Shown piece after piece: positions 60,377 to 63,300 of a stretch of 64,000 nt of DNA; the stretch's first letter is position 1; every line of letters begins with the position of its first letter. The stretch lies in the NCBI RefSeq assembly GCF_057098645.1, contig NZ_CM169472.1, one strand, 5' to 3'. A program made the position numbers.

Positions 60377-63300
60377 TAAAGGCAGTACATTAAAACAAGG
60401 AGCGGCAATGTATTACGGGTTTGATATTGGTGGAACAAAAATTGCGCTTGGCGTGTTTGATAGCGGTCGGCAGTTGCAGTGGGAAAAGCGGGTGCCGACA
60501 CCGCGTGATAGCTATGACGCATTTTTAGATGCAGTGTGCGAGCTGGTAGCCGAAGCTGATCAACGTTTTGGCTGTAGAGGTTCTGTCGGCATCGGTATTC
60601 CGGGAATGCCGGAAACAGAAGATGGTACGCTGTATGCCGCCAATGTCCCCGCTGCCAGCGGTAAACCGCTGCGTGCCGACCTGAGCGCACGTCTTGATCG
60701 CGATGTACGCCTTGATAACGATGCCAACTGTTTTGCCCTTTCAGAAGCCTGGGATGATGAATTTACGCAATATCCACTGGTGATGGGGTTGATTCTCGGC
60801 ACCGGCGTTGGCGGCGGGCTGATTTTCAACGGCAAACCGATTACCGGTAAAAGCTACATTACCGGCGAGTTTGGCCATATGCGTCTGCCGGTTGATGCGT
60901 TAACCATGATGGGGTTGGATTTCCCGTTACGCCGCTGCGGCTGTGGTCAGCATGGCTGCATTGAAAATTATCTGTCTGGTCGCGGTTTTGCGTGGCTGTA
61001 TCAACACTATTATCATCAACCGTTGCAGGCTCCCGAAATTATTGCGCTTTATGATCAAGGCGATGAGCAGGCAAGGGCGCACGTTGAGCGTTATCTGGAT
61101 TTATTAGCGGTTTGTCTGGGAAATATCCTGACCATCGTTGACCCTGACCTGGTCGTCATTGGTGGTGGCTTATCGAATTTCCCGGCAATCACAACGCAAC
61201 TGGCGGACAGGCTGCCTCGTCATCTCTTACCTGTAGCTCGTGTTCCGCGCATTGAACGCGCGCGCCACGGTGATGCGGGAGGAATGCGTGGTGCGGCCTT
61301 CCTACATCTAACCGATTAAACAACAGAGGTTGCTATGCTGTCGCGTCGGGGTCATCGGTTAAGTCGTTTTCGTAAAAATAAACGCCGCCTGCGCGAGCGT
61401 TTGCGTCAGCGTATTTTTTTCAGAGATAAAGTGGTGCCGGAAGCAATGGAAAAACCAAGAGTACTCGTACTGACAGGGGCAGGAATTTCTGCGGAATCAG
61501 GTATTCGTACCTTTCGCGCCGCAGATGGCCTGTGGGAAGAACATCGGGTTGAAGATGTGGCAACGCCGGAAGGTTTCGATCGCGATCCTGAACTGGTGCA
61601 AGCGTTTTATAACGCCCGTCGTCGACAGCTGCAGCAGCCAGAAATTCAGCCTAACGCCGCGCATCTTGCGCTGGCTAAACTGCAAGATGCTCTCGGCGAT
61701 CGCTTTTTGCTGGTGACGCAGAATATAGACAACCTGCATGAACGCGCAGGTAATACCAATGTGATTCATATGCATGGGGAACTGCTGAAAGTTCGTTGTT
61801 CACAAAGTGGTCAGGTTCTCGACTGGACCGGAGACGTTACCCCAGAAGATAAATGCCATTGCTGCCAGTTCCCGGCACCCTTGCGCCCGCACGTAGTGTG
61901 GTTTGGCGAAATGCCACTCGGCATGGATGAAATTTATATGGCGTTGTCGATGGCCGATATTTTCATTGCCATTGGTACTTCGGGGCATGTTTATCCGGCG
62001 GCTGGGTTTGTTCACGAAGCGAAACTGCATGGCGCGCACACCGTGGAGCTGAATCTTGAACCAAGTCAGGTCGGTAATGAATTTGCCGAGAAATATTACG
62101 GCCCGGCAAGCCAGGTGGTGCCAGAATTTGTTGAAAAGTTGCTGAAGGGATTATAAAGCAGGAAGCATTGCCTGATGCGCTACGCTTATCAGGCCTACAA
62201 GCGGACCACAATACCGACGAAAGAGCGGGATAAAACTTTACTGTCCTGACTCATTAGCCACATCCTTGCTAACTAAAAAACGGGCGGTAATACCACCGCC
62301 CGCTTGCTGAATTAACGTCCTGCTTTCAGCTTCTGATAATACTCTTCATAAATGCTGCTGGCTGCGCCAACGTCATTCTGCCATTCGCCATTTTTAATGG
62401 TTTCAGCATCCGGGTAGAGCGTCTTATCGTTCGCCACTTCTGGACTTAACAGCTTACGCGCCGCAAGGTTTGGCGTTGGATAACCGATAGTTTCAGCAAC
62501 CTGTTTTGCCACATCCGGGCGCAGCAGGAAGTTGATCAATTTCAGCGCGCCTTCTTTGTTTTTGGCATTTGCCGGGATCGCCAGGCTGTCCATCCAGAAT
62601 ATGCCGCCTTCTTTCGGCCACACCACGTCAATAGGCGTACCCGCCTGGCGTGCAACGAAAGCAGAACCGTTCCAGATCATGCCGAGGTTAACTTCGCCTT
62701 CCATGTACGGGTTAGCCGGGTTATCGGAGTTAAAGGCTGCCACGTTTGGCATCAGTTTTTTCAGCTCGTTATATGCAGCTTCAATCTCTTTCGGATCGGT
62801 GGTGTTACCGGAGTAGCCCAGCTTACGCAGCGCCATCTGGAACACTTCACGGGCATCGTCGGTCAGCAGCAGGCTGCCTTTGTACTCAGGCTTCCACAGA
62901 TCGGCCCAGCTGGTAACGGATTTCGGATCTACCGCATCACCGTTAACGCCAATCGCCGTCGCCCCCCAGATATACGGAATGGAGTAGTCGTTATTCGGGT
63001 CAAACGGCTTGTTGAGCATGTCTGGATCGAGGTTGCTGAAATTGCTTAACTTCGACTTGTCGATCTTCTGGATCATCCCTTCTTTACGCATTTTATCGAC
63101 GTAATAGGTTGAAGGAACCACCAGGTCGTAGGCACCGTCTTTGTACGTTTTCAGCTTGGCGTACATGGTTTCGTTCGACTCGTAAGTCGAATAGATAACC
63201 TTAATACCGGTTTCTTTGGTGAACTGTTCAAGCAGTCCTGGCGGCACGTACTCGGTCCAGTTGTAGAAATACAGCGTGTTGTTGTCATCGGCGTGAGCGG

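Follow-up and report, generated by a model that had tools for sequence, protein, structure and literature searches.

The cobB stop codon carried by most Escherichia coli is very probably ancestral and was lost by a one-base deletion in K-12-type strains

We conclude, with a probability of roughly 0.93, that the TAA codon closing cobB in the window (the whole 64,000-nt stretch of DNA analysed here) is the ordinary ancestral stop of this gene, and that K-12-type strains carry a derived one-nucleotide stop-loss deletion. As translated from the open reading frame, window CobB ends in ...KLLKGL, directly followed by the TAA (62154-62156). The deletion is assigned to K-12 because the T and the TAA stop occur in all outgroups and in 68% of the E. 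coli genomes. In K-12, which is without T62154, six further codons (KAGSIA) are read before a TGA.

cobB and its 3' end in the window

The features of the region are collected in Table 1. Comparison of a 986-bp segment that begins at the cobB start and reaches into potD gave 100% identity with E. coli O145 RM9872 and 99.6% with O157:H7 strains, and we therefore place the window in the O145/O157:H7 EHEC group. The cobB sequence itself is identical in O145 RM9872, where the RefSeq annotation is cobB WP_000952736.1 (822 nt). This 273-aa protein, identical to window CobB, is annotated in O145 (no difference from the window), O157:H7, 2013C-4282 and 55989.

Table 1. Features at the cobB 3' end and its surroundings (positions in the window)
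Feature	Position	Strand	Details
nagK	60348-61319		upstream neighbour of cobB; ORF call
cobB with its TAA stop (long isoform, 273 aa)	61335..62156	+	ORF call; 822 nt
Internal ATG, equivalent of the K-12 CobB-S (short isoform) start	61446..61448	+	same 111-nt offset
TAA stop of cobB, very probably ancestral	62154..62156	+	T62154 is the base without counterpart in K-12-type strains
Spacer from stop codon to REP, 13 nt	62157..62169	+	codons K-A-G-S-I in the K-12 frame
REP-type palindrome, GCCTGATGCGCTACGCTTATCAGGCCTAC	62170..62198	+	29 nt, imperfect; holds a latent TGA at 62173-62175
ymfA remnant	62195..62254	-	start codon and ~15 homologous codons, now a 19-codon ORF (MSQDSKVLSRSFVGIVVRL, then stop)
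Junction of the 1,291-bp deletion	62207..62210	.	4 filler bases, CACA; BLAST versus 55989
Terminator-like hairpin downstream of potD	62278..62305	-	12-bp stem, 7 G-C pairs, T-rich tail; consensus match only
potD, convergent with cobB	62312..63358	-	155 nt from the cobB stop

The Pfam SIR2 profile (PF02146) matched CobB with E=4.3e-54 (183.6 bits versus a cut-off of 24), from profile position 1 to 180 of 180, and the match covered residues 48-221 in both the 273-aa and the 279-aa protein. Over residues 39/40-273 the window protein was 100% identical to the chains of PDB 1S5P and 6RXJ. CobB occurs as two isoforms 37 N-terminal residues apart (PMC10965786, PMC8556138); the CobB-S start is annotated 111 nt inside cobB in K-12, and the same offset in the window falls on ATG 61446. 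K-12 CobB (b1120, NP_415638.3 / WP_000952737.1, 279 aa; PDB 1S5P and the 6RXJ series) thus shares with the window its residues 39-273, its Sir2 domain at 48-221, the internal CobB-S start and the gene order nagK-cobB. It differs in having no TAA after KGL, in the added KAGSIA, in a TGA that lies inside the REP and in the ycfZ-ymfA genes downstream, which are absent in the window. By profile match and by orthology alike, window CobB is a predicted Sir2-family NAD+-dependent protein deacylase. Because the 273-aa CobB of Salmonella has been described as a functional deacetylase (PMC10965786) and the whole catalytic domain is identical to that of K-12 CobB, we take the 273-aa form to be, in all probability, an active deacylase as well.

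The cobB gene of K-12 MG1655 comprises 840 nt and encodes 279 aa, compared with the 273 aa of the window. Direct alignment placed window GGATTATAAAGC against K-12 GGATTA-AAAGC, with T62154 as the sole length difference, and a longer alignment paired window ...GGATTATAAAGCAGGAAGCATTGCCTGATG... with K-12 ...GGATTA-AAAGCGGGAAGCATTGCCTGATG... in the same way. When T62154 was deleted in silico, the window read L-K-A-G-S-I-A-stop, with the TGA at 62173-62175. A preliminary description of this DNA had noted that CobB ends in ...KGL-TAA, six codons short of K-12 through a one-nucleotide indel, and had given the K-12 C-terminus as ...LKAGSIA; the alignment, in which only T62154 differs, confirmed the former, and the K-12 sequence showed the latter to be correct. 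The 273- versus 279-aa length is a real, fixed allele difference, for which chance is not the relevant test. The two CobB lengths are fully explained by the two DNA alleles; as for programmed recoding (frameshifting or read-through), no slippery heptamer was noticed at GGATTATAAAG, the 3' end of cobB.

The six-residue tail falls outside the Sir2 domain, and catalysis is probably unaffected by it. The chain in PDB 1S5P ends one residue beyond KGL, and the chains of the 6RXJ series have the six-residue tail after the aligned region. That the indel is likely neutral for sirtuin activity, as had been proposed, is thus supported as probable, with the SIR2 match at 48-221 in both forms and the 1S5P chain ending one residue past KGL.

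Allele distribution, direction of change and origin of the deletion

Alleles were counted by megablast in 5,426 complete E. coli genomes; the queries were 32 or 33 nt long and positioned such that every 28-nt seed spanned the site. The window allele (GGA TTA TAA, as a 33-mer) was present once per genome in 2,974 genomes and a synonymous variant (GGC TTA TAA) in 702, so that KGL is followed by TAA in 3,676 of the 5,426 genomes (67.7%). The K-12 deletion allele was found in 1,707 (31.5%), no genome combined the deletion with the GGC background, and 43/5,426 genomes matched none of the tested haplotypes. Carriers of the TAA allele included O157:H7/O145, 55989, O104:H4, BEN2908 and the ST131 strain JJ1887; we take 55989, BEN2908, O157:H7/O145 and JJ1887 to belong to different phylogroups. 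Among the 2,974 hits of this 33-mer from the 3' end of cobB, five were on plasmid-class records rather than chromosomes; these records may be mis-classified replicons or chromosomal segments borne on plasmids.

These counts bear directly on whether T62154 could be a sequencing or assembly error in the window. Single-base indels are the commonest assembly error, but the exact 33-mer is present as a single copy in 2,974 complete genomes, the GGC variant adds 702 more, the T lies outside any homopolymer run and the region is 100% identical to O145 RM9872. An error at this base is vanishingly improbable, and the allele counts rule it out at the population level.

Outgroup states were obtained by scanning one-genome-per-species contigs with a degenerate DNA pattern for the CobB C-terminal segment. 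The scan returned 28 loci, 26 of them enterobacterial, a large yet incomplete sample that lacks E. fergusonii, E. marmotae, S. enterica subsp. enterica and S. bongori. In 26/26 enterobacterial loci CobB ended in ...KGL with a stop directly after it. Within Escherichia this ending was seen in E. albertii, E. whittamii, Escherichia sp. MOD1-EC7003 and E1V33, and also in SCPM-O-B-8794 and E69, two divergent genomes labelled E. coli; beyond the genus it was seen in Salmonella enterica diarizonae and in 21 Citrobacter genomes representing many species. The heptamer TTATAAA, the same as in the window, was present in 6/6 Escherichia outgroups. No ordinary E. coli representative was returned either, although the pattern is matched by BEN2908, K-12 and the window, so that a typical E. 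coli genome should match it as well; coverage of E. coli and of the four taxa named above appears incomplete, either in the collection or in the scan.

Salmonella CobB-L and CobB-S have 273 and 236 aa (PMC10965786). Salmonella enterica thus shares the length of window CobB, and also the ...LLKGL-stop ending (this C-terminus was seen in diarizonae); it differs in having TAG as the stop, a downstream REP of another type (GCCGGATG...) and a few substitutions, as in EFVDKLLKGL.

The opposite direction of change, in which a T was gained in the window lineage and the resulting premature stop truncated an ancestral 279-aa CobB, draws only on the comparison with K-12, the conventional reference that looks like the default. 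Against it stand the KGL-stop ending of every enterobacterial outgroup locus, the TTATAAA shared by the Escherichia outgroups, the majority status of the T allele (including 55989, BEN2908, O157:H7/O145 and JJ1887) and the 273-aa length of Salmonella CobB. We regard such a gain as extremely improbable, and an insertion in the window lineage is ruled out by the outgroup states. As far as the compared sequences tell, wild-type CobB in Escherichia, Salmonella and Citrobacter is the 273-aa protein ending in KGL. Both lengths are already catalogued in RefSeq, as WP_000952736.1 (273 aa) and WP_000952737.1 (279 aa), and the polymorphism is in that sense a known one.

Several statements of the preliminary description have to be revised in this light. 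Its title, that CobB ends early because of one extra T, reverses the direction, since the outgroups and 68% of the genomes carry the T; the alternative that it also offered, a one-nucleotide deletion in K-12, is borne out by the outgroups and the allele counts. Reference CobB sequences that likewise end in KGL, which it had itself named as evidence against its reading, were looked for and found. Its view that the T could equally be a sequencing or assembly error is excluded by the 3,676 complete genomes and the outgroups. Nor is the T the clean strain marker it was held to be: as the majority, ancestral state of the species it is uninformative for the window strain. It is the derived K-12 allele that marks a lineage, and even this allele seems to have arisen twice.

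The T of the TAA was very probably lost in the K-12-type lineage, changing TTA-TAA-AGC into TTA-AAA-GCx. In K-12, read-through adds KAGSIA from the 13-nt spacer and three further bases, with which the REP begins, and the new stop is a TGA in the 5' arm of the REP. The allele probably spread by descent inside a clonal group that, by strain names only, looks mostly phylogroup A-like. The genomes with the K-12 allele are largely K-12 derivatives and small genomes (4.6-4.9 Mb), and their strain names and genome sizes suggest phylogroup A.

The K-12-linked G six bases downstream accompanied the deletion in 1,703/1,707 deletion alleles, and an A was found in only 4; because 1,703 of the 1,707 share the linked G, we infer one main origin of the deletion. 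Two of the four A-carrying alleles are AW1.7 assemblies, which have the K-12 haplotype plus a SNP. The other two come from SZQ1 (China) and FCI51 (Colombia); over ~920 nt they depart from the 55989-type haplotype only in lacking the T, and K-12 differs from the 55989-type cobB haplotype at ~21 sites. A strictly single origin is therefore not fully upheld, since SZQ1 and FCI51 carry the deletion on a 55989-identical haplotype. The simplest reading of these haplotypes appears to be one main origin, with the same T lost independently a second time in a few genomes; the deletion in SZQ1 and FCI51 may instead be an error common to the two assemblies, or the product of a very short conversion tract.

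The REP palindrome beside the stop codon

The palindrome 3' of cobB formed the stem GCCUGAUG.CG...CG.UAUCAGGC in both the minimum-free-energy and the centroid fold. Per genome, the 986-bp query matched 9 places in the median and 22 at most, though cobB is single-copy, and the extra places mapped to query positions 832-864 (for example hit H40), which is the palindrome segment. With a stem-loop and multi-copy dispersal both found, the palindrome behaves as a REP element; it resembles what we take to be the REP class GCCTGATGCG...CTTATCAGGCCTAC. No further copy was found within the 64-kb window at <=3 mismatches, and the K-12 RefSeq feature table has no repeat_region at the site. The REP hairpin region as a whole folded no better than shuffled sequence (z = -0.68), and we therefore make no claim of special structure beyond the palindrome. 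No intrinsic terminator for cobB was detected on the + strand, where the REP hairpin is the only hairpin 3' of the gene.

In K-12 the 5' arm of the REP takes in the last sense codon of cobB, GCC, and its TGA (positions 6355-6360 of the K-12 locus L001, corresponding to window 62170-62175). A repeat that is extragenic by name is thus partly coding in K-12, which is unusual.

REPs less than 16 nt from a stop codon have been reported to stall ribosomes and to down-regulate translation (Liang, Rudd and Deutscher 2015, as related in PMC12306157). The window REP is comparable to such stop-proximal elements in being a 29-nt imperfect palindrome with many dispersed copies, 13 nt past the stop; it differs in being partly coding in K-12, and an effect of the window REP on cobB translation or mRNA stability is putative. 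The TAA lies 13 nt upstream of the REP stem in the window and the K-12 TGA lies inside the stem, both within the <16-nt class. If it matters where the stop lies with respect to the REP, REP-mediated stalling of ribosomes would not be the same in the two alleles, CobB levels would differ as a result, and the K-12 deletion, rather than being neutral, would be either adaptive or deleterious. The stalling reported for REPs at this distance, the different geometry of two alleles of the same class and the recurrence of the deletion on a second haplotype (SZQ1, FCI51), which might point to selection or to a mutational hotspot, are consistent with this possibility. However, the recurrence involves only 2 genomes, clonal descent readily accounts for a frequency of 31% in a collection of genomes that is biased, and the z value of -0.68 puts the hairpin region no higher than shuffled sequence. 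We consider a non-neutral effect of this kind quite unlikely. The more specific proposal, that the K-12 deletion alters REP-dependent stalling and tmRNA tagging and so gives CobB levels and acetylome set-points different from those of most E. coli, with the recurrence reflecting selection, is in our estimate very unlikely.

Loss of ycfZ-ymfA and K-12 CobB as a reference

Between cobB and potD, K-12, 55989 and BEN2908 have ycfZ-ymfA. In BLAST comparison with 55989, homology stopped at window position 62206 (L007 2372) and restarted at 62211 (L007 3664), and this 1,291-bp deletion took ycfZ and most of ymfA from the window. The residual ymfA start aligned with the N-terminus of 55989 YmfA (MSQDSKVLSRAFLGI...). 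It is because ycfZ-ymfA is gone that potD lies so close to the cobB stop. Just 3' of the REP, the sequences of E. albertii and E. whittamii are similar to the form that bears ycfZ, and the loss is therefore taken as derived. Strain N96 (L006 2394-2475 versus L007) has a separate ycfZ-ymfA deletion of 1,221 bp, after which ~23 nt at the 3' end of ycfZ remain and, of ymfA, only the start; because its endpoints differ, ycfZ-ymfA was lost at least twice in E. coli.

We considered whether the T indel could be a by-product of the ycfZ-ymfA deletion. It is not: 55989, with the same CobB protein as the window, and BEN2908 have the TAA allele yet keep ycfZ-ymfA, and the counts also contradict a coupling, the junction 33-mer being present in 407/5,426 genomes versus 3,676 with the T. 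The two are independent events, and most sampled T-allele genomes retain ycfZ-ymfA. The sampled matches to the junction 33-mer were mostly O157:H7 and O145, and the deletion is a much better lineage marker (for the O157:H7/O145 group) than the T.

For the window itself the result has little significance, its cobB being the standard form of a well-known gene. It calls for caution about the reference. K-12 CobB (279 aa, ...KGLKAGSIA), which stands behind nearly all biochemical and structural work, has a lineage-specific six-residue tail that is translated from what was once intergenic and REP sequence and is missing in about two-thirds of E. coli genomes and in all sampled relatives. The residue numbering of CobB is unchanged by the tail, which lies outside the Sir2 fold. 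The difference is relevant to work with C-terminal tags and to expression studies that depend on the context of the stop codon beside the REP.
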